A DNA stretch of 23,082 bases from a virus (IMGVR_UViG_3300025913_000020); one strand, 5' to 3'. Numbered from the stretch's first letter, positions 924-14,420 are shown. Notes: generated by a model from the sequence alone, not told the origin. Translations and numbers: made by a program.

Positions 924-1038
924 GCGTCACCGTACTTACATTGGCGCTCCGAGCAGGACTTGCACCTGCAACCTTCGGTTTCGAAGACCGCCGCTCTGTC
1001 TCTTTGAGCTACCGGAGCAAATCTGTTCTAAAATTGCG

Positions 1039-1738: not shown

Positions 1739-1813
1739 TGGTGGAGACAACAGGAGTTGCACCTGAAACCTTCCGCGTGTCGAGCGGGTGCTCTACTTCA
1801 GAGCTATGCCTCC
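1739..1813 (-). tRNA. tRNA-Val(GAC)
   Basis: Cloverleaf, loop UC-GAC-AC (C33), T-loop UGCAACU, encoded CCA. Confidence 0.88.
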
Positions 1814-1824
1814 GTAATTAAGGT

Positions 1825-2481
1825 GTGAAAGTCGGCGAATTCGATGTCGAAGTGCAAAGCGCCCGCGTTGGCGGAGGCTGGCAGGCTGTGGGTATTCTTC
1901 CCGATGGAAAAAAGATCGTTTCCGGCCCGTGCAGCTCTCGTGAGACCGCAGAGCATGACATTAAGCAGCAAGCGCTTGCCCGGCTTTACGTTCAGCGTAA
2001 GTATGATGTAAACAGACCGTTTGAATCTATGAGCAAGCTTGGCGAAAATAAATTTCTGAAGGGCGCGATCAATCCTGATCACAAGGGTTATTGCACGCCG
2101 ATGAGCAAGAGCACCTGCACTCCGCGCCGCAAGGCGCTGGCGCGTCGTTTCAAAAAGGGCGGCGATCTGCACCACGAATCTCTCAGTGAAGCGGACATGG
2201 CCATCGTGCTGCACCAGGCGGACCAGCTCCTGGAAGATGCTCGCGATTACCTTGAACTTTCGCTCGACGGCAACCAGATCGAGCGTCCAGAATGTCCGCA
2301 TTGCGGCGGTGATCAGAGCGAGCCGGTCGGCGACGGTCGTCATAAATGCCCGCAATGTGGCGGCGTGTTCAGCGCCAATGTGAATCAGTATCCGGCAGGT
2401 CCGCTGCCTCCAGGTAAAGCTTCGTTTTACCCGAGCGACGGCGGCGGCACTGGTGGCGGCAGCGGTATGGCAAACATGTGA
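1825..2481 (+). CDS. Hypothetical virion-like protein with basic CTP-repeat motif and Zn ribbon
   Basis: 218 aa; KGYCTPMSKSTCTPRRKALARRFKK; CPHC...CPQC; GTAATTA motif 4 nt upstream. Confidence 0.75.
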   Translation: MKVGEFDVEVQSARVGGGWQAVGILPDGKKIVSGPCSSRETAEHDIKQQALARLYVQRKYDVNRPFESMSKLGENKFLKGAINPDHKGYCTPMSKSTCTPRRKALARRFKKGGDLHHESLSEADMAIVLHQADQLLEDARDYLELSLDGNQIERPECPHCGGDQSEPVGDGRHKCPQCGGVFSANVNQYPAGPLPPGKASFYPSDGGGTGGGSGMANM

Positions 2482-3221
2482 AACCGATAGGCAAAGGGTA
2501 CGGCGGATTTGATATTTATCCGACAGTCGAGAAGCGCTACAAGTGCGACCGCTGCGGGTATATCAGCAAACAGTCCACGAACACGTTTGAACCGACGTGG
2601 TCATGGGACCGCGTGAATGTTTGTCCCAACTGCCCGCCCTGGGCAAAGTACCCTCAGTTCGGCGGCCAGACGACGTGGACTTGCATCGACACGCCGGACA
2701 TGTTTCCAGACGAGGAGGCCGGAGAGCAGTCCATGTCGGAAGCAATCTTTCAGGAGGCCGATGCGTTGCTTCCATCACCTTCACAGGATACTGTTCTATT
2801 TGAGATGGGTGACGAGACCATAGAGCGAATGGACGTTTACGAACTTCCTAGCGATGAATCCATCGGTTTTACGGCCAAGGTTGATGGCGAATACATCGAA
2901 GGAGCGCAGCGCGGAGGTAATGGATTCCATCAGGGAATGATTATCGTAAGCAACCCGCAAAAGGCTCTCCAGATAGGTGAGCAAAAGGCTAAAAATGACG
3001 GTAAGAAGAAAGCTTACGTCGAGGTCCGCGATTTCAATTACAAGCAATTAAGGGCGGTTCTACAGGCGACCGGGGAGGGGGTATGGATGGATAGGGACGT
3101 ATTCATCAAGTTCAGGGATGCTTCCGATAAAGCAGGTGAACTAGGTCCAGACGACGCTCTTAGGAAATATCCTCTCGACGGTAAAAATTACTGGATTCAG
3201 CTTCCTCCAGGCCGAAGCTGA
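2478..3221 (+). CDS. Hypothetical protein with N-terminal Zn-binding motif
   Basis: 247 aa, 4-nt overlap with the upstream gene; CDRC...CPNC. Confidence 0.75.
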   Translation: MKPIGKGYGGFDIYPTVEKRYKCDRCGYISKQSTNTFEPTWSWDRVNVCPNCPPWAKYPQFGGQTTWTCIDTPDMFPDEEAGEQSMSEAIFQEADALLPSPSQDTVLFEMGDETIERMDVYELPSDESIGFTAKVDGEYIEGAQRGGNGFHQGMIIVSNPQKALQIGEQKAKNDGKKKAYVEVRDFNYKQLRAVLQATGEGVWMDRDVFIKFRDASDKAGELGPDDALRKYPLDGKNYWIQLPPGRS

Positions 3222-3222
3222 G

Positions 3223-3298
3223 TGGAGCCAGTCGCAGGAATTGCACCCGCCGTCTCCCGATTACAAGTCGGGCGCATCGCTGTCAATGCTTGACTGGC
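3223..3298 (-). tRNA. tRNA-Thr(UGU)
   Basis: Anticodon arm CCCGA-CU-UGU-AA-UCGGG, U73, CCA. Confidence 0.92.
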
Positions 3299-3371
3299 AT
3301 TTGTAAACATTTTCTAGTTGTGGGCACATCACCCACTGGTTGTCAACGAGGATAGGAACCAGATTGACGCC

Positions 3372-3635
3372 ATGAACCTCATGCACGTTGTACCCGCGTT
3401 TGGAGAAGTTACGTTCGGCGGTGGCGGAGACGGACTTGTCCACTCACTTTTCCTCGTTTTAATTATCGGCATCTGCGTCGCTCTCATTTGGGCGGTCGGA
3501 CGCTGGTTCATTCAGAAGCTCGGCGCGCCAGCGGTGGTAATGACCATCTGGAACGGTTTCTTCATCCTGGTCGGGTTGATCGTCGTGGTGAACTTCCTGC
3601 TCAGCCTCGCTGGACACCCGTTCATTCGGTTTTAG
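3372..3635 (+). CDS. Small two-TM membrane protein
   Basis: MNLMHVV...; two hydrophobic segments; fills the gap between tRNAs. Confidence 0.75.
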   Translation: MNLMHVVPAFGEVTFGGGGDGLVHSLFLVLIIGICVALIWAVGRWFIQKLGAPAVVMTIWNGFFILVGLIVVVNFLLSLAGHPFIRF

Positions 3636-3711
3636 TGGTGGGCCGCCTCGGTAATGCTCCGAGTTCTCCGGGGTAAAAGCCCGGTTCTTCGCTTTTCAAA
3701 GTTTGCAGCCC
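3636..3711 (-). tRNA. tRNA-Lys(UUU)
   Basis: CCGGG-CU-UUU-AC-CCCGG, T-loop AGCAUUA, CCA. Confidence 0.9.
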
Positions 3712-3717
3712 GTAAAT

Positions 3718-3793
3718 TGGTGCGTTGGGTCGGCAATGATCCGACACGCTTCCGGGTAAGAACCGGGTGCTCTGCCAGTTGAGCTACCAACGC
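3718..3793 (-). tRNA. tRNA-Lys(CUU)
   Basis: Loop UU-CUU-AC, standard D arm, CCA. Confidence 0.9.
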
Positions 3794-3817
3794 AAAAAAG
3801 GTCAATGATTTGATATT

Positions 3818-3874
3818 GTTTTAGGAAAACCCATTGTTTTACTAAATCAGTAAAACAATGGGTTTTCCTAAAAC
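3818..3874. repeat. Perfect 26-bp inverted repeat, 5-nt loop
   Basis: GTTTTAGGAAAACCCATTGTTTTACT-aaatc-AGTAAAACAATGGGTTTTCCTAAAAC. Confidence 0.95.
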
Positions 3875-3883
3875 CAAGAGTCG

Positions 3884-3939
3884 ATTTCACTAAAAAGGGT
3901 TGTTTCACTGCGCAGTAAAACAACCCTTTTTAGTGAAAT
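3884..3939. repeat. 28-bp inverted repeat with one mismatch
   Basis: ATTTCACTAAAAAGGGTTGTTTCACTGC / GCAGTAAAACAACCCTTTTTAGTGAAAT; the mismatch is a G-U pair on the minus strand. Confidence 0.95.
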
Positions 3940-4014
3940 TGGTCGCTCCGGGTGGACACGATCCACCGACCTTCAGCTTATGAAGCTGCTGCTCTCCCTC
4001 TGAGCTACGGAGCG
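3940..4014 (-). tRNA. tRNA with CAU anticodon (elongator Met or Ile2)
   Basis: Loop UU-CAU-AA, paired C1-G72 (not initiator-like), A73, CCA. Confidence 0.88.
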
Positions 4015-4082
4015 TTCGCCCGGCCTTGGTTCGCACCGTGTCTTCTGCACCACCACGCCAAGACAGGGCCGGGTTTGAAAAG

Positions 4083-4158
4083 TGGAGCCTGCTGACGGAA
4101 TTGCACCGTCCATTACCCGGTTACCGACCGGGGCCACCGCTGTCTGTGGGTAGCAGGC
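4083..4158 (-). tRNA. tRNA-Thr(GGU)
   Basis: CCCGG-UC-GGU-AA-CCGGG (C33), CCA. Confidence 0.88.
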
Positions 4159-4564
4159 TTTCGAGAGGTTCGATGACGACATCGGCCTCGACTGTAAAAA
4201 TTGGAATGACCTCCTGGAACTTTGCCGCCTTCAGCATGTCATTGCTGTATCGTGCCTCGACACCGTCAGCGACCGAGATCGTAATGTGCGGAAATTGATT
4301 TTCACTTTTCGCGCCAACCAGGACGGCTTGGGCTTTTTCATCGGAAGCGAATCCGAATACCGGTATCCGCAGGCGCTCACCTTCCAGGCTTTTATAGCGC
4401 TCCAGCGTTTGCGCGTCCGGTTTGAAGGCCATCGTGACGTGGTGTGCGTAAACAACCGCGTGCTGCGGTGGAAAACGGCGCAGCAGCTCTTGGTGGCTTT
4501 CCGGCGTCAGCACGGCACTGATGAATACGCCAGGTTCGTTCAGAGGTAATCGTTCGGTTGACAT
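4121..4564 (-). CDS. 2H phosphoesterase (2',3'-cyclic phosphodiesterase-like)
   Basis: Two HxT motifs, HHVTMAF and PHITISV. Confidence 0.85.
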   Translation of the reverse strand: MSTERLPLNEPGVFISAVLTPESHQELLRRFPPQHAVVYAHHVTMAFKPDAQTLERYKSLEGERLRIPVFGFASDEKAQAVLVGAKSENQFPHITISVADGVEARYSNDMLKAAKFQEVIPIFTVEADVVIEPLESLLPTDSGGPGR

Positions 4565-4776
4565 GGTGGTTCAGGTTGCGGCCAGCCGCCTTCAGGAGGC
4601 ATCGCTGGAGGCCATGCTGGCCCAGGGTAACAGTACCGGCAAAAAGCCCTTTCCTCGTTATATCCAGGAACGTCCTTGCGAACGTAAACAGTGTGGCCGC
4701 AGCTCAGTCCGAACTTTGCCAGAACGACTGTTCCGGTGCCTTCTTCACCGTGTTTGCAGACTATTTTCCTGAACAT
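4540..4776 (-). CDS. Small Cys/His-containing hypothetical protein
   Basis: 78 aa; LSCGH...CRYC; starts just after tRNA-Gly. Confidence 0.6.
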   Translation of the reverse strand: MFRKIVCKHGEEGTGTVVLAKFGLSCGHTVYVRKDVPGYNEERAFCRYCYPGPAWPPAMPPEGGWPQPEPPCQPNDYL

Positions 4777-4779
4777 AAA

Positions 4780-4854
4780 TGGTGCGCCATGTCGGTGCTG
4801 CCCCGACTTATCCTGTTTGGAAGACAGGCTCCTTAGCTGTTGGGATAATGGCGC
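4780..4854 (-). tRNA. tRNA-Gly(UCC)
   Basis: CCUGU-CU-UCC-AA-ACAGG, A73, CCA. Confidence 0.9.
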
Positions 4855-4855
4855 G

Positions 4856-5599
4856 TTAAGCTGGTATTTCGCCGCGTGAGCGATAAACTTGATCCATGTG
4901 GGCTTTGACCTCCTGGTCGTGCGTGGCGAAATCTTTTCTACCGAGCGAAGCCACGATCTCGGGATGCTCGGCCAGATCAGGAGGAAACTTTTCGTCCGGC
5001 ATCTCCATGATCTTTTTGATCAGCGGTTCAATGCGATCCTTGTTGTTCGCATTGTGCTTGATGATGTCTTTGTACGAATCAATCGTGTGCCGCTTGCAGT
5101 TGCCGTGGGAGGCGTTCGGGTCATGCACGCCGAATTCACGCTCGCACATGCCGCAGGACCGCCGCTCCGCTTCGATGACGAAGTTGACGATGCTTTCGAC
5201 GCACTCTGAAAAGTCGCTGCTCAATTTATCTAGCTCAGCGCGTTGAGTATCCAGCTCGCTTCGCCTTCCAGAAATATACTCATTTGCCAGAAAAGCAACA
5301 GCTTTTCTCAGCGTGTTCAAGGCGTCAGGCGGAAGCTTCTCGGTCTCCTGGGCCATCCGGGAAATTTTCACGATGTCGGACAGTGCCCGGCCAGGACCTT
5401 GGCGCAGAATGTTGTTCAGATCGGTTTTGGTGACCTTTCTGAATTGCTGGAGCCAGTTGACCAAGGCGTCGGCTACTGATCTTGGAGATTCCTGTGCGTC
5501 CACGGCGGCCTTGAGAAAGAGGTAGCCTGGACTCCAGATGTGGTCTGGATTCGTTTTGCCGCCCAGGTCGCTCCATTTGACTGCGCCGTATTTCTTCAT
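4856..5599 (-). CDS. Hypothetical protein (virion-like)
   Basis: 247 aa filling the inter-tRNA gap; CGMC...HGNCKRH motif; GTAGTTA upstream. Confidence 0.8.
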   Translation of the reverse strand: MKKYGAVKWSDLGGKTNPDHIWSPGYLFLKAAVDAQESPRSVADALVNWLQQFRKVTKTDLNNILRQGPGRALSDIVKISRMAQETEKLPPDALNTLRKAVAFLANEYISGRRSELDTQRAELDKLSSDFSECVESIVNFVIEAERRSCGMCEREFGVHDPNASHGNCKRHTIDSYKDIIKHNANNKDRIEPLIKKIMEMPDEKFPPDLAEHPEIVASLGRKDFATHDQEVKAHMDQVYRSRGEIPA

Positions 5600-5611
5600 C
5601 GCTTTAACTAC

Positions 5612-5687
5612 TGGAGGCCGGTATCAGAATTGCACTGATGTAATGCGGTTTTGCAGACCGCTGCCTTGCTTCTCGAACCAACCGGCC
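5612..5687 (-). tRNA. tRNA-Cys(GCA)
   Basis: GCGGU-CU-GCA-AA-ACCGC, U73, CCA. Confidence 0.92.
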
Positions 5688-5691
5688 AAAG

Positions 5692-5767
5692 TGGAGCCTC
5701 CGGTCAGAATTGCACTGACCATCTCCAGTTTACGAAACTGGCGCACCGCTGGCTGTGCGTCGGAGGC
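5692..5767 (-). tRNA. tRNA-Thr(CGU)
   Basis: CCAGU-UU-CGU-AA-ACUGG, CCA. Confidence 0.9.
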
Positions 5768-5771
5768 AAAA

Positions 5772-5845
5772 TGGTACCCCGTGACGGAATCTCACCGCCT
5801 CCATCACTTTGTAAGAGTGAGGCACTGATGTTATGCAAACGGGGC
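5772..5845 (-). tRNA. tRNA-Val(UAC)
   Basis: UCACU-CU-UAC-AA-AGUGA, CCA. Confidence 0.9.
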
Positions 5846-5850
5846 TGAAA

Positions 5851-5981
5851 TGGCGGGGATGATAACCGTTAAATATCGGTCCGTAAACGGACAAGGAGGT
5901 TCCAACGACTATTTGAGACTGGATTCGAACCAGCGACCTCCCGCTTTTCAGGCGGGCGCTCTACCGCTGAGCTACATCCCC
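5851..5981 (-). ncRNA. tRNA-Phe(GAA) body with 56-nt Y-RNA-like stem inserted between T arm and 3' acceptor strand
   Basis: Removing 5862-5917 leaves a canonical 75-nt tRNA (GGGGAUG/CAUCCCC-G-CCA, CU-GAA-AA, UUCGAAU). The insert has CUUGUCCGU-uu-ACGGACCGA...GGUUAU. Confidence 0.85.
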
Positions 5982-5987
5982 ATAAAA

Positions 5988-6064
5988 TGGTGCTCCAAAC
6001 AGGACTCGCACCTGTGACCTTTGGCTTCGCAGACCAACGCTCTATCTAACTGAGCTACTGGAGC
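5988..6064 (-). tRNA. tRNA-Arg(GCG)
   Basis: UUGGU-CU-GCG-AA-GCCAA, CCA. Confidence 0.9.
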
Positions 6065-6070
6065 AGAAAG

Positions 6071-6147
6071 TGGTACTCGCGGCTGGAATCGCACCAGCGG
6101 CCTGTTCCTTCGGAGAGAACCGCTCTGTCTAACTGAGCTACGCGAGC
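6071..6147 (-). tRNA. tRNA-Arg(CCG)
   Basis: GUUCU-CU-CCG-AA-GGAAC, CCA. Confidence 0.92.
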
Positions 6148-6249
6148 ATAAAAAACGAGGATTATTTTTCGCGGAGAGATACCTCTCGTTCAACAACTTG
6201 ATGGCTGTTTGCCATCGAAAAACGATGATCTTCGCGAGGATGTTAAAAA

Positions 6250-6327
6250 TGGTATCCGTGACCGGACTTGCACCGGTTAGGCCCTGCTTGAAGGGCAGGA
6301 TGCGCGAGCTGCTTTGCATTCACGGAC
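6250..6327 (-). tRNA. tRNA-Glu(UUC)
   Basis: CCUGC-CC-UUC-AA-GCAGG (C33), CCA. Confidence 0.85.
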
Positions 6328-6373
6328 TGAAAATCTTGTCAGAAAAAGTGGTGTGTTTTTCGGACAAAAAGCT

Positions 6374-6450
6374 TGGCGTCCCTGGCGGGGTACGATCCCG
6401 CAGTCTTCTGGTTGAGAACCAGATATGCTGACCAGTTGCACCACAGGGAC
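6374..6450 (-). tRNA. tRNA-Glu(CUC)
   Basis: UCUGG-UU-CUC-AA-CCAGA, G73, CCA. Confidence 0.92.
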
Positions 6451-6466
6451 GCGCCGAGGGTTAAGC

Positions 6467-6530
6467 TCACGGGCAAGATGGTTAGCGTGGGGTTTTCGAT
6501 GAATGATAACCCATGCTGTTCGGTCCGTGA
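6467..6530 (-). ncRNA. Minimal Y RNA-like gene (no tRNA domain)
   Basis: UCACGGAC-C-GAA...GGUUAUC...CUUGCCCGUGA; same bulged stem as the YrlA-like copies. Confidence 0.7.
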
Positions 6531-6533
6531 AAT

Positions 6534-6596
6534 TGGCGGGGCCGCCTGTCGATTCAGGTCACTGAGGACTCAGGCGGCTGGCCGGGCCGCAGCCCC
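6534..6596 (-). ncRNA. 63-nt miniature tRNA-like RNA with CCA and no anticodon loop
   Basis: 7-bp acceptor GGGGCUG/CGGCCCC-G-CCA plus three short hairpins. Confidence 0.6.
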
Positions 6597-6603
6597 ATAA
6601 AAG

Positions 6604-6680
6604 TGGTCCCAGGGGTCGGTATCGCACCGACGTACTCCGGTTTTTCAGACCGGCGCTAATACTATCTCAGCTACCCTGGG
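6604..6680 (-). tRNA. tRNA-Phe(GAA)
   Basis: CCGGU-CU-GAA-AA-ACCGG, A73, CCA. Confidence 0.92.
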
Positions 6681-6734
6681 ATTTCGAGGCATCCTCCTTG
6701 CGAACCAGTTTGATGAAAAGCCTCGTGTCGAAGA

Positions 6735-6808
6735 TGGTCCCCTATCGTGGTAACGCTCCACGGTCAACCGCTTATCAAGCGGACGCTCTGCTTTTGAGCT
6801 AATAGGGG
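6735..6808 (-). tRNA. tRNA-Ile(GAU)
   Basis: Loop UU-GAU-AA, CCA. Confidence 0.9.
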
Positions 6809-6809
6809 G

Positions 6810-7181
6810 TCAAGGTGGAAAATCCTGGCGGAGGCGCTTTTTCATGGCACCGGCCAGATTCGCGAACGGCAGATCGGCCAGCCACGGAAATTGCTTCGCG
6901 TCTGGGTGGTCTGGATTCGTTCGTTCGACCGTGGCCATGCTGTTCCAGGCTCCGGCCTTTTTTACTCTGAGCGCTTCGTCGTAAGTCGGACACATGACGT
7001 AAACGTCGCTCTCGTGAAAATGGATTCGGTCGGCGCTGATGCCCATGTCGATCAGAGCGGAGACAACATCGTCGTGAACGCCGCCGAGTTTGTCAGGAAT
7101 GCCGCTGACATCTTTCATGTCGTCATCCTCAGACTCTGTGACGAATGCGATGATGTGCTTAATTGAGTCGGTGCTTTGCAT
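6810..7181 (-). CDS. Hypothetical protein
   Basis: Start trimmed to MQSTDSIKHII (ATG 7181) to avoid a long overlap with the upstream gene; contains HESDVYV. Confidence 0.75.
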   Translation of the reverse strand: MQSTDSIKHIIAFVTESEDDDMKDVSGIPDKLGGVHDDVVSALIDMGISADRIHFHESDVYVMCPTYDEALRVKKAGAWNSMATVERTNPDHPDAKQFPWLADLPFANLAGAMKKRLRQDFPP

Positions 7182-7692
7182 CTTTCGATCTGAAAGCGAT
7201 GGCGGCGCGCCGCGTGGTTTCTTTTTCCTGGTCAGTAAAACTGCGCCAGGCTGCGAGAGCGTCTTCAAAAGGTTCGTCAATGCCAGCCATCTTTTGTAGT
7301 TGCTGGATCAGCTCCACACCTTCCCGCTCCTGCTTTGTAGGCGGTCGTGCTTTGGGCGGGCGCGGCGGAGGGTCTTCAGGAATATCCCGAGGCGCTTCCT
7401 GCCATGCCGTGAATTTCACTCGTTTGACGTAGTCCTCATCAAAATCTCGCTTTCCCTTGCGATACTCTGCGTTCAAGCGGTTAGCGACCCACTGGGCAAC
7501 GTAGCGATCCTTGGCACCTGGGTTCAGCCCGACAGAGACCTCTACGAAAATCCGGGTGTTAATGCCAGGATCAGGCGATGAATTGACTGTGACGTAAATG
7601 GCATGGCCCGCATGGTAAATGTGAAAGGGCCAGTCCTTGGCTTCACTTAAGATCGCCTGGACGATGTTGGCCGCATCTTCTTTGATGTTCAC
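7159..7692 (-). CDS. Hypothetical protein (virion-like)
   Basis: 177 aa, GTG start, GTAGTTA 5 nt upstream. Confidence 0.8.
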   Translation of the reverse strand: MNIKEDAANIVQAILSEAKDWPFHIYHAGHAIYVTVNSSPDPGINTRIFVEVSVGLNPGAKDRYVAQWVANRLNAEYRKGKRDFDEDYVKRVKFTAWQEAPRDIPEDPPPRPPKARPPTKQEREGVELIQQLQKMAGIDEPFEDALAAWRSFTDQEKETTRRAAIAFRSKDAKHRLN

Positions 7693-7835
7693 GCCTTTAA
7701 CTACAGCGTAAACATTTTATAGTTCAGGGGGATATACCCCTCTATGGCCGGTTTCGTTTTTATGCGAGAAATAGGAGTTGGGGTTTAATGGTCGGCTCTG
7801 ACCTCGTACTGAACACAGACCTGAAACTAAAATCT

Positions 7836-8210
7836 ATGAAAAAACACGAAACTACCGCTGTTGCGGACAAACCGGAACATGCAACTACCGCTGTTGTGGA
7901 TAAAACGGTCAGCTCGTTTGAAGCTGACCTCACTGCCATTGACAAGCAGATTGCTGATCTGAAAGCGAAACACCAGGCTCTGAATCCGAAAATCACTGCG
8001 GCCCTGGTGGAAGCTCAAAAAGCGTCGGCCACGCTCCGTGACAAAATCAATCCCCCGAATTCACCCACGCTCGCTGACTTGCAGGAACCGACACGGGCAC
8101 TGAATCATCAGATTCAGATCGTTCCTGTTCCGACGAAGGCTGAATCAAAAAAGGCTTTGGAAGACATCCAGGCCGCTTCGTTGGCTCTCCTGGGTGAAGT
8201 TGGCGAATAA
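7836..8210 (+). CDS. Coiled-coil hypothetical protein
   Basis: Likely start MKKHETT (ATG 7836); internal repeat HETTAVADK/HATTAVVDK; followed by a hairpin at about 8224-8252. Confidence 0.75.
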   Translation: MKKHETTAVADKPEHATTAVVDKTVSSFEADLTAIDKQIADLKAKHQALNPKITAALVEAQKASATLRDKINPPNSPTLADLQEPTRALNHQIQIVPVPTKAESKKALEDIQAASLALLGEVGE

Positions 8211-8259
8211 ACGTGTGGTTCTTGCTCGCTCCGTTGATTCAGCGGAGCGGGTCTAAAAT

Positions 8260-8348
8260 TGGCGGATGGTGCAGGAGTTCCACCTGCGCTGCCCGTGGGG
8301 CAGTCCACCGCTTTCGAGGCGGGAGCCTTGGTACTCGGCCAACCATCC
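8260..8348 (-). tRNA. tRNA-Ser(CGA)
   Basis: Loop CU-CGA-AA, long variable arm, G73, CCA. Confidence 0.9.
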
Positions 8349-8354
8349 AAAAAC

Positions 8355-8486
8355 TGACGGGCAAGTATCGCAGAGGATGTTTTAGCGCTTTACCGTTAAG
8401 CTATCCCGGCACAAAGCCGGGACTGGGATTCGAACCCAGAACTCCTCATTTTCCAGTGAGATAACCCTCCAACATTCGGCCCGTCA
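8355..8486 (-). ncRNA. YrlA-like Y RNA
   Basis: End-pairing stem UGACGGGC-C-GAAUG / CUUGCCCGUCA enclosing T arm (GGUUCGAAUCC), loop-closed acceptor-like stem and D arm in permuted order. Confidence 0.85.
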
Positions 8487-8491
8487 AAAGA

Positions 8492-8631
8492 TTTGGTGGA
8501 CAAGTAGCGGCGACGGTGTTTTAGGTGCTCTACCGTTAAGCTACTCTGCGGTCTGTGGTCGCAGAGCAAGGATTCGAACCTCGACAACCCGCTTTATGAT
8601 GCGATAACCATCATCCAGTCGGCCCACCAAA
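8492..8631 (-). ncRNA. YrlA-like Y RNA
   Basis: GGUGGGC-C-GAC / CUUGUCCACC stem; T arm, closed acceptor stem, D arm (UAGCUUAACGGUAGAGC). Confidence 0.85.
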
Positions 8632-8719
8632 ATTAAAAAGCAACCTGCGCTGGTCATCCGCTCGCTACCCATGTCGATTTTACGACCCAAAGCCTCGTCC
8701 GATGCGCGCAGGCTGTAAA

Positions 8720-8809
8720 TGGCGGATGGTGCAAGCTTCGCTCTTGCGCAGGTGTGACCCTGATCTCTGCCTTCCAAGCAGGTGCCTTGCTGGACTCGGC
8801 CAACCATCC
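8720..8809 (-). tRNA. tRNA-Ser(GGA)
   Basis: Loop UU-GGA-AG, long variable arm, G73, CCA. Confidence 0.9.
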
Positions 8810-8825
8810 AAAAAAGTTTACAAAG

Positions 8826-8913
8826 TGGCGGAGGGCACAGGAGTTCAACCTGTTCTGGTTTGACCCAGGCGTCGAGTTTCAAGCTCGCCCCGTTAGCGTT
8901 CCGGCAGCCCTCC
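8826..8913 (-). tRNA. tRNA-Ser(UGA)
   Basis: Loop CU-UGA-AA, long variable arm, G73, CCA. Confidence 0.88.
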
Positions 8914-8956
8914 ACGTGGGGTATTGACAATAAATGGTTAGCTCGTAGTTAATCTG

Positions 8957-9418
8957 ATGGCAACCGCAGAAATTAAAGAAACGCAGCATTCTGAAACACT
9001 CGCGTATCGGCTGTTGGAAAGATTTTCGTCCGAACGCGAGCAGGTTGAACGGTACACCGCTGTCGCTGAATTTTGTCCGATTCCTGCGTTTGTTGTAGCC
9101 CACGACGGCAGGACCGTCGTTTATGTCAACAAAGCTTATTACGACATGATGGGCGTCACACCGGAAGAAGGAAAGAATCTCCAGTGGAAAAAATCCATTC
9201 ACCCTGATGACATAAACCGCGTGGTCTGGGAATGGGAGCACATGATCGAGACCGAGCAGCCGCTTCATTCCGAACGCCGGTACATTGATCACACCGGCCA
9301 CGAATTCAGCGCAACGCTGGTAGCGCGCCGGGTCGAGAACAACGGTTTTGTCGGCTTCATCGTGCCTCACGAAATCAGCAGAGTGGTGCCCTCGGCAGGA
9401 TTCTCACCTGCAACCTGA
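8957..9418 (+). CDS. Stand-alone PAS-domain protein
   Basis: YVNKAYYDMMGVTPEE...WKKSIHPDD...ERRYIDHTG is a typical PAS/PAC signature. Confidence 0.88.
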   Translation: MATAEIKETQHSETLAYRLLERFSSEREQVERYTAVAEFCPIPAFVVAHDGRTVVYVNKAYYDMMGVTPEEGKNLQWKKSIHPDDINRVVWEWEHMIETEQPLHSERRYIDHTGHEFSATLVARRVENNGFVGFIVPHEISRVVPSAGFSPAT

Positions 9419-9459
9419 GTTTTAGGAAAACCCCGCGCTGTAATTTGCGCCACGAGGGC
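9384..9459 (-). tRNA. tRNA-Arg(CCU)
   Basis: GGGUU-UU-CCU-AA-AACUC, CCA. Confidence 0.88.
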
Positions 9460-9463
9460 AAAG

Positions 9464-9539
9464 TGGTGCTCTCGGCTGGAATCTCACCAGCGACATCCCG
9501 CTTAGAAGGCAGGCACTCTGATAACTGAGCTACGAGAGC
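9464..9539 (-). tRNA. tRNA-Arg(UCU)
   Basis: CCUGC-CU-UCU-AA-GCGGG, CCA. Confidence 0.92.
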
Positions 9540-9545
9540 AGAAAA

Positions 9546-9620
9546 TGGCTCCAGGAGTTGGACTCGCACCAACACTAAACCGCTTAACAGGCGGACGTGC
9601 TACTTTAACACTACCCTGGA
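9546..9620 (-). tRNA. tRNA-Asn(GUU)
   Basis: Loop CU-GUU-AA, U1-A72, G73, CCA. Confidence 0.92.
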
Positions 9621-9695
9621 TGGCAGCCCCGACTGGTTATGCTCCAATGCCTTTCGAGTCAGAGTCGAACGCGCTGCTGATTACGCTACGGGGCC
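9621..9695 (-). tRNA. tRNA-Gln(CUG)
   Basis: UUCGA-CU-CUG-AC-UCGAA, weak 1-72 pair, G73; zero spacer to tRNA-Asn. Confidence 0.9.
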
Positions 9696-9704
9696 AATAA
9701 TAAA

Positions 9705-9780
9705 TGGTCGGGATGGTCGGGTACGATCCGACAACCTCCGGGTCCCAAACCCGGCGCGCTGCCAATTACGCCACATCCCG
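9705..9780 (-). tRNA. tRNA-Pro(UGG)
   Basis: CCGGG-UU-UGG-GA-CCCGG, C1-G72, CCA. Confidence 0.93.
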
Positions 9781-9817
9781 CTTGTCATTCAAAAATAAAA
9801 TGTTTACTTTTCTGATC

Positions 9818-10048
9818 ATGAACTACGTTGCGCTCGCGGTCGCCTTTTTGATGATCACATTTCTCGGTCTCGACGCCACTTTGATCGTGATGATGTGGGG
9901 CGTCTTTGCCTGTATCGGTCTCGGCCTGATCGGCGAATTTATCATCACGCCGTGGCGCGACGAAATGCGCGAGAGAAAAAAGGGAAGCCCTTGCGTGCGC
10001 GACTCCATATCCGTGGCCCCGGAATCTGGCCGAGCTGATAAGCTCTAG
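9818..10048 (+). CDS. Small membrane protein
   Basis: MNYVALAVAFLMITFLG...; two hydrophobic stretches; start could be 9800. Confidence 0.55.
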   Translation: MNYVALAVAFLMITFLGLDATLIVMMWGVFACIGLGLIGEFIITPWRDEMRERKKGSPCVRDSISVAPESGRADKL

Positions 10049-10128
10049 TTCGCTGTGCATTACAAGTGGTCTGGACTCGCCGTCCTCCCACCGGCCCGGA
10101 TAAACACCGGGGGACTTCTCATAACAAA

Positions 10129-10205
10129 TGGTCAGTGTGGTGGGCTTCGATCCCACAGCCTCGTGTACCCGAAACACGCGCTCTACCAGGTTGAGCTACA
10201 CACTG
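10129..10205 (-). tRNA. tRNA-Pro(CGG)
   Basis: CGUGU-UU-CGG-GU-ACACG, CCA. Confidence 0.92.
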
Positions 10206-10213
10206 TTGAAAAA

Positions 10214-10288
10214 TGGTCGGGACGGTGAGGATTGCACTCACGATCTCCAGCACCCCATGCTGGCGCGTTACTGCTTCGCTACGCCCCG
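10214..10288 (-). tRNA. tRNA-Pro(GGG)
   Basis: CCAGC-AU-GGG-GU-GCUGG, CCA. Confidence 0.92.
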
Positions 10289-10291
10289 GAG

Positions 10292-10423
10292 CTGATGAGC
10301 AAGTGGCAGGAAGGGAGATACACCGATCAAAGATCGGCTGCCTTACCAATCGGCGGTCATCTCCACGAAAGAGATGACAGGATTCGAACCTGTTATAGAT
10401 AACCCTCACTTACGGCTCATCAG
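10292..10423 (-). ncRNA. YrlA-like Y RNA
   Basis: CUGAUGAGC-C-GUAAG / CUUGCUCAUCAG stem, GGUUAUC, T arm GGUUCGAAUCC, closed acceptor stem, D arm and one extra hairpin. Confidence 0.8.
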
Positions 10424-10426
10424 AAA

Positions 10427-10503
10427 TGGCGGGACTGACCGGACTCGCACCGGCTTACTTGGTCGTGACAGGACCCTGATTCGACTCCTTCATCTTCAGC
10501 CCC
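10427..10503 (-). tRNA. tRNA-Asp(GUC)
   Basis: Loop CU-GUC-AC, G73, CCA. Confidence 0.9.
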
Positions 10504-10509
10504 ATAAAT

Positions 10510-10591
10510 TGGCGTGAGGGGATGGACTTGAACCACCGACCTCCCGATGCCGGTTAAGGCACCAGGTGCTCTTTCACTGAGCTACCCCCAC
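10510..10591 (-). tRNA. Atypical tRNA with 9-bp anticodon stem; isotype undetermined
   Basis: CCUGGUGCC-UUAACC-GGCAUCGGG; normal D arm, UUCAAGU T-loop, G73, CCA. Confidence 0.7.
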
Positions 10592-10596
10592 AAAAT

Positions 10597-10682
10597 TGGT
10601 GCGCCAGGCAAGACTTGCACTTGCGAAGCCCGAAGGCAAGGGATTTACAGTCCCTCGGTTTTGCTGCTCCCACCACTGGCGC
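10597..10682 (-). tRNA. tRNA-Tyr(GUA)
   Basis: AGGGA-CU-GUA-AA-UCCCU, long variable arm, CCA. Confidence 0.92.
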
Positions 10683-10784
10683 GTCCCGCCTCCATCCAAG
10701 CACTGCGGCATTGTCTCCGTTACTTCGAGTGTGCTCTCTGGGAGACTTCAACCGTTTTTCGGACGGGGCGTGAGTATCTAAAAC

Positions 10785-11222
10785 ATGAATATCACTGAAA
10801 ATACCGGTATCGCGAATCTGGCTGAGGTTGAAGGAAATATCCTTCGTGGCGGCCAGCCGAATGCCGCAGGTTGGGACTTTCTTAAAACCTCCGGTATTAC
10901 GCGTGTGATAAAATTGAATTTGGATGGCGATTCACCGGATAAGCCCGGCGACGGCACCGAGCTGGTGAAGTGTCCCATTGATCTCGCGGATCAGATTATT
11001 TTCAGACCGAACTACGATCTGGTCATGCAGGCCGTCAACGCCATCCAGCCGGGCACCTTCATTCACTGCACGCACGGCCAGGATCGCACGGGTCTCGTGG
11101 TGGGTTGCTACCGCGTGTTGAAGCAGGGTTGGACGAAAGATGCGGCTTGGGCGGAAATGCTCCAGCACGGGTTTCATACTGAACTGCTTGGCCTCACTCT
11201 CTTTTGGGAGTGGGCGATCTGA
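10785..11222 (+). CDS. Tyrosine/dual-specificity phosphatase (CX5R)
   Basis: FIHCTHGQDRTG P-loop; N-terminal RGGQP. Confidence 0.92.
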   Translation: MNITENTGIANLAEVEGNILRGGQPNAAGWDFLKTSGITRVIKLNLDGDSPDKPGDGTELVKCPIDLADQIIFRPNYDLVMQAVNAIQPGTFIHCTHGQDRTGLVVGCYRVLKQGWTKDAAWAEMLQHGFHTELLGLTLFWEWAI

Positions 11223-11227
11223 AAGCG

Positions 11228-11306
11228 GCGGGCAAGTTGGCGCACTGGGTCGTTTCGGAATGGCTTAAGAGGCCACTGATGGCGATAATCCAGGGCATCG
11301 GCCCGC
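11228..11306 (-). ncRNA. Short Y RNA-like gene (no tRNA domain)
   Basis: GCGGGC-C-GAUG...GAUUAUC...CUUGCCCGC. Confidence 0.7.
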
Positions 11307-11311
11307 TAAAT

Positions 11312-11387
11312 TGGCACGGCGGGTCGGCAATGATCCGACAACCTTCGGTTTTGGAGACCGGTGCTCTGCCAGTTGAGCTACCGCCGT
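11312..11387 (-). tRNA. tRNA-Trp(CCA)
   Basis: Loop CU-CCA-AA, G73, CCA. Confidence 0.92.
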
Positions 11388-11571
11388 ATTGAAATCGCTC
11401 CCGTTGGGGACTTTTACCCCGATGCGTCGTTGTGTCCACGGGAATTCACGAACACCACGCGTTCTGCCCGACGAGGCATCTGCTCGTCGGAATAAAAATT
11501 GTTGACGAAAAAGTTTTAGGCCCCAAAGTGGTGCCGCCAACAGATTCTCAGCCGCGATCCAGGGAGCGCGG

Positions 11572-12030
11572 CTAACATTTTTCCCACAGGTTGCAGCAGC
11601 CGCCGCCTTCGATCGTACCTTCGACTTTGCCGCATCCAGCCTTCTCGTGAATGTCGGTGTCGGGATTGTCTTTTTCTTTGCCGCCCCAGTATTCGCAGAT
11701 CGCGCACTTGGTAGGACCTTCCTGCACGTATCCAGCCGAGGTCTTCGGCAGCAGCTTCAGCGGAGTGCCGCCGTTTTTGAAAATCGAGTCGCCACCCAGG
11801 AATGCTGCGCAGACGCCGTGTTTTGCATTGCAGGCAGCGGGGGAGGTCAAGAGGCATTCACTGCGATTGGCGTTGAAAAAGATGCAGGCCCCGCAGTGCG
11901 CGCCTTTTTCGTCGCCGATCTGTTCGGGTGTCAGGTAAACCGCAGCAGCCTGTTCGACTCTGCCGCCTTTACTTTCCTCAGCTTCTTCGCCTTCGCGAAG
12001 GCCGAGAATCCGTTTCAAAGTGGTATCCAC
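11572..12030 (-). CDS. Protein with two HiPIP-like 4-Cys repeats
   Basis: CGACIFF...C...GVCAAF and CAICEYW...CGKVEGTIEGGGCCNLW. Confidence 0.7.
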   Translation of the reverse strand: MDTTLKRILGLREGEEAEESKGGRVEQAAAVYLTPEQIGDEKGAHCGACIFFNANRSECLLTSPAACNAKHGVCAAFLGGDSIFKNGGTPLKLLPKTSAGYVQEGPTKCAICEYWGGKEKDNPDTDIHEKAGCGKVEGTIEGGGCCNLWEKC

Positions 12031-12043
12031 GCCGTAAATACGC

Positions 12044-12289
12044 GGTGACTCAGGCAGGGTTGTGCCTGCTTACTGTTTCAGTTTTTCGGCACCCGGAAGC
12101 AAAGTTGATCCTGGCGCTGCTTTGATCCAGGGACTCGTCACGTAGCATCAAATGCCGGACGTTAAGCTTATTTGCGTCGGCTGGCAGATAGTCAATGCCG
12201 CACTCAAGGACGCCGGACCTACTCCAGTTCCTCGTACGACTGTCACTGGAAACCGAGAGGGATTACCGTCCCCCTATCGCTGAGTCACC
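12044..12289 (-). ncRNA. Unassigned 246-nt structured RNA
   Basis: Perfect 10-bp terminal stem GGUGACUCAG/CUGAGUCACC with several internal hairpins; no credible ORF; strand inferred from the array. Confidence 0.55.
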
Positions 12290-12432
12290 AGTGGAAAGAA
12301 CTGAACGAGGCTTTGGGGCGCAGTGTATTCTGCCAAAGCGTTGATGTGGAGTTCATCGTCAGGCTGTGGGAACGCCTAGCCAATACAGGGGACTCCTTTT
12401 CCATCCGTGACCGTGTTTCAGGCTCGCTCAAA

Positions 12433-12558
12433 TGGTGGACCTTGCGGAAATCGCATCCGCTCGGCGCGCCCCCGTAGGGAAGCGCGCCTTTCTCTGGCCG
12501 GTCGCAAGCGGAGTGATTACCGCTGCCTTGATCGGTTTTATGCGCCGGATGAAGGCCC
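12433..12558 (-). ncRNA. 126-nt tRNA-like RNA with Ala identity elements and no anticodon
   Basis: GGGCCUU/AAGGUCC-A-CCA (G3-U70, A73), T arm GCGGA-UGCGAUU-UCCGC, long arm capped by C(UACG)G. Confidence 0.75.
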
Positions 12559-12567
12559 GAAAGGGAG

Positions 12568-12906
12568 GCGTGCGGCGGGGGTCGAACCCGCTCCCCCAGA
12601 TAAGTGTCATCGTCCGGGATTTAGTGCGGCTTCCCTTGGCCAACCAGCCCTGTGACACAAGAACTGGCCAGTTGTAGCCGCCACAGCCATACGAAGGTGC
12701 TGCTGCCAGCCTTTTGGGCCAGCGTCTTCTTCCCGCTCACGCCCAGACCAGGTCTCAGCTCACCTGGGCGCTTATGGACTTGAAGCAACAGTTATCCCCA
12801 CCGGACACCTGGTCTAAGACCGCCAGGCGCTATGTGCCGAGGCCCCGTGTCCCTGCGCAGAAACACAAGGCAAATGCCGTACCGGCTCAGAAGGATAACC
12901 CGCAGC
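12568..12906 (-). ncRNA. Unassigned ~340-nt multi-domain RNA with 3' T arm and possible pseudoknots
   Basis: Several closed domains, T arm GCGGG-UUCGACC-CCCGC, two loop-loop complementarities. Confidence 0.6.
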
Positions 12907-12911
12907 ATAAA

Positions 12912-12990
12912 TGGTGGAGAGCACGGGAATTGCACCCGTCTGAAATTCTCATTGCAAGTGAGACGACCACGCTAAGCAGTCCCGCTCCCC
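12912..12990 (-). tRNA. tRNA-Ala(UGC)
   Basis: UCUCA-CU-UGC-AA-UGAGA, G3-U70, A73, CCA. Confidence 0.92.
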
Positions 12991-13872
12991 TTAAAGTGTC
13001 GCGATGAACGCGTCGATCAAGTCTGATGAATCGGCCACGCATTTCGCTGCCGCTGCTTTCAAGTTGGCGATGTCATCGTCAGATGCACCGTCAATCGGCA
13101 GTGGCTGGTCGAGACGTGGAGAAATGCGAACATAACCGCCTTTCGTCATCAGTCGTTTCAAAATGTAATCCGGCAGATCGTCGTTGGCGTCGAACAGCAG
13201 GCTCAGTGTTTCCAGGCCGGTGTGGAGCAGACCGCTGTCCACGAGTTTGTCCGCTGAAAATTTGCTCTGGGCCTGGCCGCATCCAACCGAAAAGATGTTG
13301 AGTGATTCGCCGGGCCAGTCACGGATGGCTTCAGCCGCCGCGCACGCTGCCGGATTGTTGGCGACGTTGCCGCCATCCCAGAGTTGTTTATTGTCCAGGA
13401 TGAAGGCCGGGAAGTAGGTCTGCGCTGCTGACGTGGCTCGGGATACCTGCCAGAGCGCGTAATCGTCATCCATCACCGGCGACTTGAAAAAGTAAGGATC
13501 GTAGGAGACCAGGTCGAACGCCGGAACGAGCAGAAACTTTTTCAGATCGGAGAGACGGGTGTTGCCCAGGCGCGCCTTGAGGCAGTCTTCGATCTTGTTT
13601 GATCCGTAGCGGGCTTCGAAAATACCGTCGTGTCCAAAAATACGTTCGTGACCGAAGATCGTCGGACCATCCACTGTGAAAAACTCCAGGGCTTCAGTCG
13701 CTGACTTGCCGGAAGCGAGCAAGCAGGCCAGGATGCCGCCGATGGAGGTTCCGGCGAACATATCGAACATGTCGAAGCAAGCTTTGCCGGTGCGCTTTTC
13801 CAGCTCAACCAGGACGGAGCAGGGGATGTAACCCTTCATGCCGCCGCCATCAATGGACAGGATGTTCTTCAT
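12991..13872 (-). CDS. Patatin-like phospholipase
   Basis: DGGGMKG, GTSIG nucleophile elbow, ATSAA..YFP, DGG. Confidence 0.95.
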   Translation of the reverse strand: MKNILSIDGGGMKGYIPCSVLVELEKRTGKACFDMFDMFAGTSIGGILACLLASGKSATEALEFFTVDGPTIFGHERIFGHDGIFEARYGSNKIEDCLKARLGNTRLSDLKKFLLVPAFDLVSYDPYFFKSPVMDDDYALWQVSRATSAAQTYFPAFILDNKQLWDGGNVANNPAACAAAEAIRDWPGESLNIFSVGCGQAQSKFSADKLVDSGLLHTGLETLSLLFDANDDLPDYILKRLMTKGGYVRISPRLDQPLPIDGASDDDIANLKAAAAKCVADSSDLIDAFIATL

Positions 13873-13876
13873 GTCC

Positions 13877-13883
13877 TATTTAC
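13877..13883 (-). promoter_or_regulatory. GTAnnTA motif (representative of 10 copies), putative phage late promoter
   Basis: GTAAATA 4 nt before ATG; other copies are listed in findings. Confidence 0.6.
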
Positions 13884-13888
13884 GAAAG

Positions 13889-13962
13889 TGGTGCGGGCGG
13901 ACGGTAATGCTCCGTCGTCTCAGCGTTGGCAACGCCGTGTTCTGCTATTAAACCACGCCCGC
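13889..13962 (-). tRNA. tRNA-Gly(GCC)
   Basis: CGGCG-UU-GCC-AA-CGCUG, A73, CCA. Confidence 0.92.
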
Positions 13963-13967
13963 AGAAA

Positions 13968-14321
13968 TTAAGGAACGATATGGAGCATCATCGGCGCTCC
14001 AGGGTATGCAAATGAGATTGTGTCCGACAGATCGCTGTGGAGGCCGGTTGTCGGGTCCTGGGCGTCCACGTTGCACCAGTAAGTCATTCCACTTACCAGG
14101 TTGCTGACGACCGCATTGGTATCGGTGACCGGAACAATCTGGATGGCCCCGTTGGTGCCGGTGCCTGCCGGATTGTTCGTGTAAATGTAAACGTTGTACG
14201 TGAGTACCGGAAAATCGTCATTCGTGGAGGAGTTCCATTGGACATGGACGCTCTTGGCCATGGCGACGATGGCGGTGATTAGGATCGCTCCTATAAGCAT
14301 TGTTTTGCGTAATGTCTTCAT
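13968..14321 (-). CDS. Secreted fibronectin type III-like protein
   Basis: Signal peptide, then VQWNSS...YNVY...VVSNLVSGMTYWCNVDA...SDLS. Confidence 0.8.
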   Translation of the reverse strand: MKTLRKTMLIGAILITAIVAMAKSVHVQWNSSTNDDFPVLTYNVYIYTNNPAGTGTNGAIQIVPVTDTNAVVSNLVSGMTYWCNVDAQDPTTGLHSDLSDTISFAYPGAPMMLHIVP

Positions 14322-14343
14322 GCCCTACATACGCAGTCTGAAA

Positions 14344-14420
14344 TGGGGTGTCGTACGGGTTTCGATCCCGTTCTGCAAGTTTCACAAACTTGGGTGCTAA
14401 GCCATCACACTCACGACACC
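14344..14420 (-). tRNA. tRNA-His(GUG)
   Basis: CAAGU-UU-GUG-AA-ACUUG, G-1:C73, CCA. Confidence 0.92.

Follow-up and report, generated by a model that had tools for sequence, protein, structure and literature searches.

The tRNA array of a jumbo phage (G000; linear virus record IMGVR_UViG_3300025913_000020, 143,414 bases) has dispensed with the T-loop triplet U54-U55-C56 (UUC), which is almost universal in tRNAs. The stretch analysed here, hereafter the window, comprises 23,082 nucleotides (bases 30713–53794 of that record), and UUC is absent from all 32 sense tRNAs between its positions 1739 and 14420, as from all 43 on the 143-kb contig. That selection acts against the UUC triplet is well supported, because it is excluded within one genome, a sister phage avoids it through other substitutions, and housekeeping tRNAs in the likely host phylum are canonical. 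We put a probability of roughly 0.55 on the reading that the rewired set escapes a broad T-loop ribonuclease working like the Schlafen effector Cash.

The array consists of 43 sense tRNA genes encoded on a single strand in 23 kb (genome 22.4–45.1 kb, minus strand). Exactly 32 CCA-ending sense genes, all on the minus strand, were called in 1739–14420 by a relaxed ARAGORN run and a custom scanner, which together gave 42 sense tRNAs on the contig; default ARAGORN called 26 genes in the window. Outside that range the scanner placed ten more genes upstream, and Leu-GAG was recognized by eye at genome 24369–24450. Default tRNA finders recover 25 of the 33 sense genes of the window and miss the rest, and the gathering score of Rfam RF00005 is likewise passed by 25/33. 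All 42 parsed genes have a canonical body (7-bp acceptor, 5-bp T stem, 7-nt T loop, CCA), with acceptor stems that pair at 6–7 of 7 positions. G53-C61 and CCA are invariant in 29 aligned genes, and the sequences carry apparent signs of purifying selection.

The T-loops of the 32 tRNAs begin with UGC (14), AUC (7), AGC (5), UGA (3), GGC (1), UGG (1), or UUG (1), and our recount returned the identical set of loop starts listed by a first-pass annotation of the window, which had claimed that UUC never occurs. Among the 42 parsed tRNAs, U54 is used by 64%, U55 by 21%, and C56 by 86%, never all three together; if columns 54, 55, and 56 were independent, 4.96 of 42 loops would be expected to read UUC, and none does (P = 0.00021, 100,000 column shuffles). 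All nine U55 tRNAs have A54 or a base other than C56. The canonical elbow, U54-U55-C56 with G18-G19, was found in 0/43.

Matching changes were found in the D-loop. In an alignment-free test, the 18-19 dinucleotide predicted from 55-56 was present in 41/42 D-loops (shuffled pairings: mean 22.9, sd 2.2; 0/20,000 shuffles reach 41), and the sole miss, Glu-UUC, is a parse error of the script, the alignment showing AG there. A D-loop GG accompanies 7/7 U55/C56 tRNAs versus 2/29 G55/C56 tRNAs (p = 4e−6). The covariation proposed earlier, of G55 with A18 and U55 with G18, is thereby confirmed, and the further pairs A56/U19 (Val-UAC, Arg-UCU, Arg-CCU) and G56/C19 (Ser-CGA, Ser-UGA) are present, the D-loop numbering of Arg-CCU being ambiguous. 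A third covarying pair, 54:58, had been missed: U58 accompanies A54 in 10/14 tRNAs and other 54 bases in 0/28 (p = 7e−7). In a pool of 2,114 distinct tRNAs, GG goes with 99% of UUC and 100% of AUC loops and AG with 98% of UGC loops; A54-U58 occurs in 112/136, and the predicted partner in only 4/8 UGA and 7/13 UGG loops.

The sister phage G256 (199 kb) is syntenic with G000 (PolA 51%, ligase 48%, Ro60 53%, HNH 51%) and avoids UUC in 37 of its 44 sense tRNAs (39 by scanner, four Leu and one Tyr added by inspection). Its T-loops start with AUC (24), UUG (6), UUA (3), UCC (2), AUU (1), ACG (1), or UUC (7), with no UGC. G256 keeps G18/U55 and changes 54 or 56, mainly to A54, whereas the route in G000 is mostly A18/G55, and orthologous isotypes differ accordingly (Arg-GCG, UGCGAGU in G000 vs. 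UUAAAGU in G256; Thr-UGU, UGCAAUU vs. AUCGAAG). Since the two phages drop the same triplet by different changes, selection would act against UUC and not for the G55 elbow. The UUC keepers in G256 are 6/9 long-variable-arm versus 1/35 short-arm tRNAs (p = 8e−5), and across 62 mixed arrays UUC is found in 153/193 long-arm versus 556/936 short-arm tRNAs (0/20,000 within-array shuffles). This trend may reflect an isotype or synthetase constraint rather than protection by the arm, because short-arm Leu tRNAs in mixed arrays keep UUC nearly as often as long-arm ones (42/60 vs. 45/60) and the Ser and Tyr tRNAs of G000 are converted. Only five protein families are common to G000, G256, and the phages G259 and G261: PolA, TROVE, baseplate J, a HAD/PNK-like phosphatase, and HNH.

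Viral control loci were chosen by the Trp anticodon arm, using a pattern blind to the T-loop (120 loci, 2/64 parts of the collection). UUC is found in 618/697 of their tRNAs, an upper estimate because ARAGORN favours canonical loops, and no locus falls below 55% among the 46 with at least five tRNAs. Two control phage arrays, L376 and L338, have many UCC (10/31) or AUC (9/21) loops without G55, pointing to further partial routes away from UUC. A search by two adjacent G55 T arms matched some 240 viral and some 2,000 genome stretches (the tool's estimate); 12 viral contigs with at least nine tRNAs are at or below ~17% UUC, the others being mixed.

The trait of G000 is common to chromosomal accessory arrays of Verrucomicrobiota, something invisible to the first-pass annotation. 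Array UUC amounts to 0–27% in 16 Verrucomicrobiota genomes versus 33–100% in 12 genomes of other phyla, figures that refer to titled genome loci with at least seven tRNAs chosen for G55 and hence are not prevalences. A Verrucomicrobiaceae genome (G001) has UUC in 43/44 parsed dispersed tRNAs versus 2/19 array tRNAs (60 Rfam tRNA matches in all; the lone dispersed exception is Ile-GAU, read as UCU), and genome G194 carries 42 canonical T-arm-CCA sites on the same chromosome as an array with 0/28 UUC. The host of G000 is probably a verrucomicrobium, because the named relatives of the array HNH are from Verrucomicrobiae and the loop vocabulary is shared. At least three clustered G55 sites were detected in just 7/251 genomes of an even Verrucomicrobiota sample (seed included), so the array is accessory, and the same count rules out a housekeeping trait of the phylum.

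On the reading that we favour, a near-complete tRNA set that has lost U54-U55-C56 along several routes, with compensation at 18, 19, and 58, would keep translation going when ordinary tRNAs are cleaved at their T-loop UUC by a broad ribonuclease present during infection. The selecting agent would be a defence effector or toxin working like Cash and lying outside the sequenced part of the phage, the tRNAs would be expressed and charged, and the presumed verrucomicrobial host would have canonical tRNAs. Bacterial copies of the array may then form a regulated rescue kit of resistant spare tRNAs and RtcB/Ro60 repair. According to its description, the type III CRISPR Schlafen effector Cash targets UUC and cleaves 28 E. 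coli tRNAs, for the most part within the T-loop and on the 5′ side of U55; substituting U54 or U55 alone is enough to prevent the cut (PMC13462974). Exactly this triplet is lacking in the G000 set, every sense tRNA of which differs at 54, 55, or 56. CdiA-CT E479 cuts the same bond as Cash, U54|U55 (PMC9086364). Cash itself comes from a Chloroflexi type III locus; the available text of its description shows none in Verrucomicrobiota, describes no resistant natural tRNA set, and leaves the targeting of phage tRNAs open (PMC13462974). Our claim is therefore escape from an enzyme that works like Cash and not escape from Cash, because the enzyme was not found. The first-pass proposal of tRNAs selected to escape a T-loop nuclease thus holds for the selection against UUC and now has a specificity in print, but the nuclease itself was not located.

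Several observations weigh against this reading. The Schlafen domain PF04326 is absent from the partial G000 record and from five related virus records (one complete), and no T-loop nuclease was located; the domain occurs in 3/7 array genomes versus 141/251 phylum genomes, hence without enrichment, and it is missing from G017 and G194, which carry the most extreme arrays of all. The anticodon arm, rather than the T-loop, is where other bacterial Schlafens are reported to cut (PMC13056530). UUC is not avoided in the anticodon loops of G000 (11/42 by script, 12 with Glu-UUC), although UC in some anticodon loops is cleaved by Cash as well (PMC13462974). The tmRNA and both suppressor tRNAs of G000 keep UUC, as do 7/44 tRNAs of G256 and 3/14 of G257, which is only partly converted (P = 0.16). 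The P values given for the array treat tRNAs as independent, but array tRNAs share ancestors, so independence is overstated. Finally, host, expression, and charging are all inferred from sequence.

The HNH protein of the array (L002:3276–3848, genome 21276–21848, minus strand) is a strongly conserved protein of 190 aa, in which D120, H121, N135, and N144 are invariant in 86 sequences; its family is common beside tRNA arrays. The structure is confidently predicted (pLDDT 92.6), and in the model the HNH part resembles the IscB/Cas9 HNH (Z 10.6, rmsd 2.3, 77 aligned), while the N- and C-terminal parts appear to align to IscB/IsrB PLMP residues 1–59, a middling match (Z 5.2–5.7) to a domain that Pfam did not give. 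IshB is described as PLMP plus HNH in ~180 aa (PMC10734217), and the array protein fits it in its intact HNH active site, lack of RuvC, and size. As modelled, the two would share an IscB/Cas9-like HNH and perhaps a PLMP-like part, and a link to the T-loop change is conjecture. A bolder picture, which we rate as rather improbable, is a parallel nuclease-proof tRNA code in Verrucomicrobiota and jumbo phages: a widespread RNase, possibly this IshB-like PLMP+HNH protein, would kill canonical tRNAs at the T-loop, translation would switch wholesale to the rewired set, and the UUC-bearing suppressors and Y RNAs would be sensors lost on firing.

TruB and TrmA need U54/U55/C56, and all variant loops would lose their sites; loss of TruB/TrmA-type modification would thus follow from the same loop changes. 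An unlikely alternative takes this as the purpose of the set: under limiting modification (fast infection, stress), its tRNAs would fold without pseudouridine-55/T54 or go unrecognized by TruB, TrmA/TrmFO, or some other UUC reader that does not cleave. Partly converted arrays from many phyla have G55 as their most frequent variant. The YGNRA T-loop reported for FMN and cobalamin riboswitches (10.1101/2022.12.26.521914) accommodates UGCRA, the loop used most often; UGARA and UGGAA fit as well, and G at loop position 2 is on this account a proven T-loop fold, whereas AUC, AGC, UUG, UUA, and GGC do not fit, and in the arrays the loop serves in tRNA. However, G256 mostly keeps G18/U55 and alters 54, which is not the riboswitch design, and modification independence leaves the strict exclusion of UUC unexplained. 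TruB is present in 5/5 array genomes, which also rules out a host lacking it. Alternatively, the phage or array might encode a T-loop ribonuclease that destroys canonical host tRNAs and replace them with its own, the candidate being the conserved HNH protein or a gene in the ~100 kb of phage that a 245-kb contig suggests are unseen. HNH is the only nuclease among the five families common to the four UUC-avoiding phages and adjoins 20 low-UUC arrays, its active site is invariant, and its N- and C-terminal parts appear to align to the RNA-binding PLMP domain of IscB/IsrB. We nevertheless hold such self-immunity to be decidedly unlikely: the same family lies beside mostly canonical arrays (UUC in 17/18 tRNAs at L461, 9/9 at L477, 11/11 at L480) and beside no tRNA in 47/80 loci, low UUC needs six changes on an HNH tree of 43 rows (loci with fewer than eight tRNAs left out) that places a clade of nine high-UUC rows among low-UUC rows, inside open forks, and chromosomal array copies coexist with canonical housekeeping tRNAs.

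Escape might instead operate on DNA, the attacker being a homing endonuclease or an integrase with the T-arm sequence of tRNA genes as its target. T4 SegB, a nuclease of a phage tRNA cluster, reads GGTTCRANTCC and a downstream CCA in tRNA genes, but it is a GIY-YIG enzyme acting on DNA, T4 tRNAs stay canonical, and T4 itself retains five SegB sites (PMC2330249). The G000 array, for its part, is accompanied by HNH. In the G000 cluster the motif is kept seven times, twice with acceptor and CCA behind it; elsewhere in the genome GTTCRANYC shows no depletion (20 observed vs. 20–22 expected); in 24/42 tRNAs, restoring UUC would still not yield the 11-mer; and G194 has HNH and its 42 canonical sites on one chromosome. 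A SegB-like explanation is consequently disfavoured and seems very improbable. Relaxed selection or shared ancestry, with decaying genes or a handful of odd ancestral tRNAs that multiplied across the array, could draw on T arms that are identical between isotypes (Lys-CUU, Trp) and on the supernumerary state of accessory tRNAs, yet it is scarcely credible where acceptors remain paired, all genes end in CCA, three tertiary pairs are compensated, and orthologous genes of G256 changed by other routes.

Escape from a Cash-like ribonuclease would have precedents in phage tRNAs known to escape defences that cut tRNA (van den Berg 2023, as cited in PMC13056530) and in an OLD-resistant Thr-UGU phage tRNA (10.64898/2026.07.10.737580). 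Those, too, are found in large phage sets changed at the site that a defence nuclease reads; the cases described concern one or a few tRNAs, altered in the anticodon arm, whereas G000 alters the T-loop of the whole set, with compensation in the D-loop and at 58. L-arrays, including the Anabaena trn operon, are portrayed as long, horizontally moved, and supernumerary, occur in Verrucomicrobia among others, and are co-regulated with rtcB and induced by translational stress (PMC8421152). The G000 array has the same makeup, a long co-oriented supernumerary set on an accessory locus with linked HNH and RNA-repair genes; the main text of the L-array paper makes no mention of T-loop, T-arm, G18, or consensus (PMC8421152), and a cyanobacterial array, unlike that of G000, has UUC in 21/24 tRNAs. 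L-arrays and anticodon-arm escape by phage tRNAs are thus already known; new here are the within-genome exclusion test, the A54 route in the sister phage, the tests against the DNA-level and HNH explanations, and the predicted IshB-like fold. No earlier description of set-wide T-loop rewiring was found in the literature, subscription papers lying largely outside the search. The most conserved tRNA motif can be dropped set-wide if its elbow partners change too, and by at least two separate routes. The open question of the Cash paper, phage tRNA escape from T-loop cleavage, becomes a direct assay with natural substrates; long tRNA arrays would gain a concrete job, a broad tRNase in Verrucomicrobiota is hinted at, and the array offers natural scaffolds for nuclease-resistant or orthogonal tRNAs.

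Chromosomal arrays have HNH, RtcB, TROVE, Band-7, RlaP, a LysR-type gene, and a sigma factor as neighbours, and one recurring locus (L447–L452, L325) unites all of these with the tRNAs. RtcB, TROVE, Band-7, RlaP, and the LysR-type regulator count as RNA-damage genes and speak for the favoured reading. The LysR-type gene lies upstream of 4/7 chromosomal arrays examined, which is only suggestive of a silent, stress-induced array as in L-arrays. The G194 array is near a Tn7-like TniQ/TniB module. Among 135 of the 180 called proteins of G000 that were scanned, RtcB had no match, and PolA, NAD ligase, RecA, DnaB, and baseplate J were identified. Completeness of the record is 83% (CheckV), and the HNH protein is also present, identical, on a 245,196-base contig, so ~100 kb of the phage are likely unseen. 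Upstream of the window, the cluster contains a Ro60/TROVE gene, tmRNA, and the HNH gene. Single-protein scans of the viral contig collection (Ro60; window 17917–19203) found no close relatives, a metagenome scan with the array HNH returned two short contigs, and INPHARED blastn with the array gave matches limited to single tRNAs at 60–80%; one such match, a stretch of Streptomyces phage Daubenski, has eight well-formed tRNAs, all canonical.

The features of the window are listed below with their T-loops.

3..923, minus: HAD/polynucleotide-kinase-like phosphatase domain protein; common to three other UUC-avoiding phages; runs off the window
942..1018, minus: tRNA-Arg(UCG), UGCAAGU; same array, just outside the range covered by the first-pass annotation (ARAGORN, scanner)
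1739..1813, minus: tRNA-Val(GAC), UGCAACU, C33
3223..3298, minus: tRNA-Thr(UGU), UGCAAUU
3636..3711, minus: tRNA-Lys(UUU), AGCAUUA, A54-U58
3718..3793, minus: tRNA-Lys(CUU), AUCAUUG, G18/U55 kept, A54-U58
3940..4014, minus: tRNA-Met(CAU), AUCGUGU
4083..4158, minus: tRNA-Thr(GGU), UGCAAUU, C33
4121..4564, minus: 2H-phosphoesterase-like protein, weak PF08302 match (E = 2e−4); possible RNA end-healing
4780..4854, minus: tRNA-Gly(UCC), GGCAGCA, G54, G58
5612..5687, minus: tRNA-Cys(GCA), UGCAAUU
5692..5767, minus: tRNA-Thr(CGU), UGCAAUU
5772..5845, minus: tRNA-Val(UAC), UGAGAUU, A18/G55, U19/A56
5846..5987 (ends approximate), minus: Phe chimera with canonical D, anticodon (GAA), and T arms, without 3′ acceptor strand, UUCGAAU
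5988..6064, minus: tRNA-Arg(GCG), UGCGAGU
6071..6147, minus: tRNA-Arg(CCG), UGCGAUU
6250..6327, minus: tRNA-Glu(UUC), UGCAAGU, C33; missed by default ARAGORN and Rfam
6374..6450, minus: tRNA-Glu(CUC), AUCGUAC
6604..6680, minus: tRNA-Phe(GAA), UGCGAUA
6735..6808, minus: tRNA-Ile(GAU), AGCGUUA
8260..8348, minus: tRNA-Ser(CGA), UGGAACU, A18/G55, C19/G56
8355..8482, minus: YrlA-like RNA 1, UUCGAAU; Rfam RF02553, E = 0.00027, below gathering score
8495..8632 (ends approximate), minus: YrlA-like RNA 2, UUCGAAU; Rfam RF02553, E = 0.34
8720..8809, minus: tRNA-Ser(GGA), AGCGAAG
8826..8913, minus: tRNA-Ser(UGA), UUGAACU, G18/U55 kept, C19/G56
9384..9459, minus: tRNA-Arg(CCU), UGAGAAU
9464..9539, minus: tRNA-Arg(UCU), UGAGAUU
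9546..9620, minus: tRNA-Asn(GUU), UGCGAGU
9621..9695, minus: tRNA-Gln(CUG), AGCAUAA
9705..9780, minus: tRNA-Pro(UGG), AUCGUAC
10129..10205, minus: tRNA-Pro(CGG), AUCGAAG
10214..10288, minus: tRNA-Pro(GGG), UGCAAUC
10303..10420 (ends approximate), minus: YrlA-like RNA 3, UUCGAAU; found by eye, no Rfam match
10427..10503, minus: tRNA-Asp(GUC), UGCGAGU
10510..10591, minus: 82-nt ochre tRNA (anticodon UUA; anticodon stem extended), UUCAAGU
10597..10682, minus: tRNA-Tyr(GUA), UGCAAGU
11312..11387, minus: tRNA-Trp(CCA), AUCAUUG
12433..12558, minus: 126-nt CCA-ending RNA with alanine-type acceptor (G3.U70, A73), UGCGAUU, and a non-standard body (sequence, fold)
12573..12910 (ends approximate), minus: ~340-nt structured RNA that terminates in a T arm, UUCGACC
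12912..12990, minus: tRNA-Ala(UGC), UGCAAUU
13889..13962, minus: tRNA-Gly(GCC), AGCAUUA
14344..14419, minus: tRNA-His(GUG), AUCGAAA

Inspection bore out that UUC is kept in the three YrlA-like RNAs, the Phe chimera, the UUA-anticodon tRNA, and the 340-nt RNA. In G000 it is likewise found upstream of the window, in the tmRNA and in a fourth YrlA-like RNA, and 37 kb downstream, in an amber tRNA; the tmRNA and amber tRNA of G256 also keep it; the RNA at 12433–12558 has UGC, so UUC is not kept by every non-standard RNA. Bacterial Y RNAs and tmRNA normally carry a pseudouridine T arm (PMC4201824), and for this reason their UUC is the default state. A decoy function of the UUC-keeping RNAs is possible, but the suggestion that mimics act as decoys or signals finds no support beyond a retained ancestral state, and the two stop-codon suppressors keep UUC yet are not mimics.

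The matches of YrlA-like RNAs to RF02553 (E = 0.00027 to 0.34) all fall below the 69-bit gathering threshold; a Ro60 gene is on the contig. The ochre tRNA and the amber (CUA) tRNA (genome 82640–82714, L004) have canonical T-loops and counterparts in G256, and the amber tRNA of G000 adjoins a PTH2 peptidyl-tRNA hydrolase gene. The RNA at 12433–12558 contains a long hairpin and occupies the place of tRNA-Ala(GGC) in G256, and a 127-nt part of the 5′ region of the 340-nt RNA is 72% identical in G256 (L537:5911–6032); no Rfam family matched in 12433–12910. The phage tmRNA (133.8 bits) and further Y-like or unexplained structured RNAs lie near Ro60 and among the tRNAs (L002:10541–10953 and 9926–9995; window 11221–11311, 6450–6600, and 8640–8718). 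A long near-perfect inverted repeat at 3811–3880, between Lys-CUU and Met-CAU, gives chance miRNA matches in Rfam.

C33 replaces U33 in Val-GAC, Thr-GGU, and Glu-UUC of G000 and in Glu-UUC, Thr-UGU, Lys-CUU, Val-UAC, Ile-GAU, and Ser-CGA of G256 (L536); control tRNAs have U33 in 683/708. C33 is possibly a second escape layer, from anticodon nucleases. The five Leu tRNAs of G000 (genome 24369–30436, L002) measure 76–84 nt and none has a long variable arm, whereas those of G256 include long-armed ones with UUC; a short-arm Leu tRNA has been reported from Streptomyces (PMC6614811).

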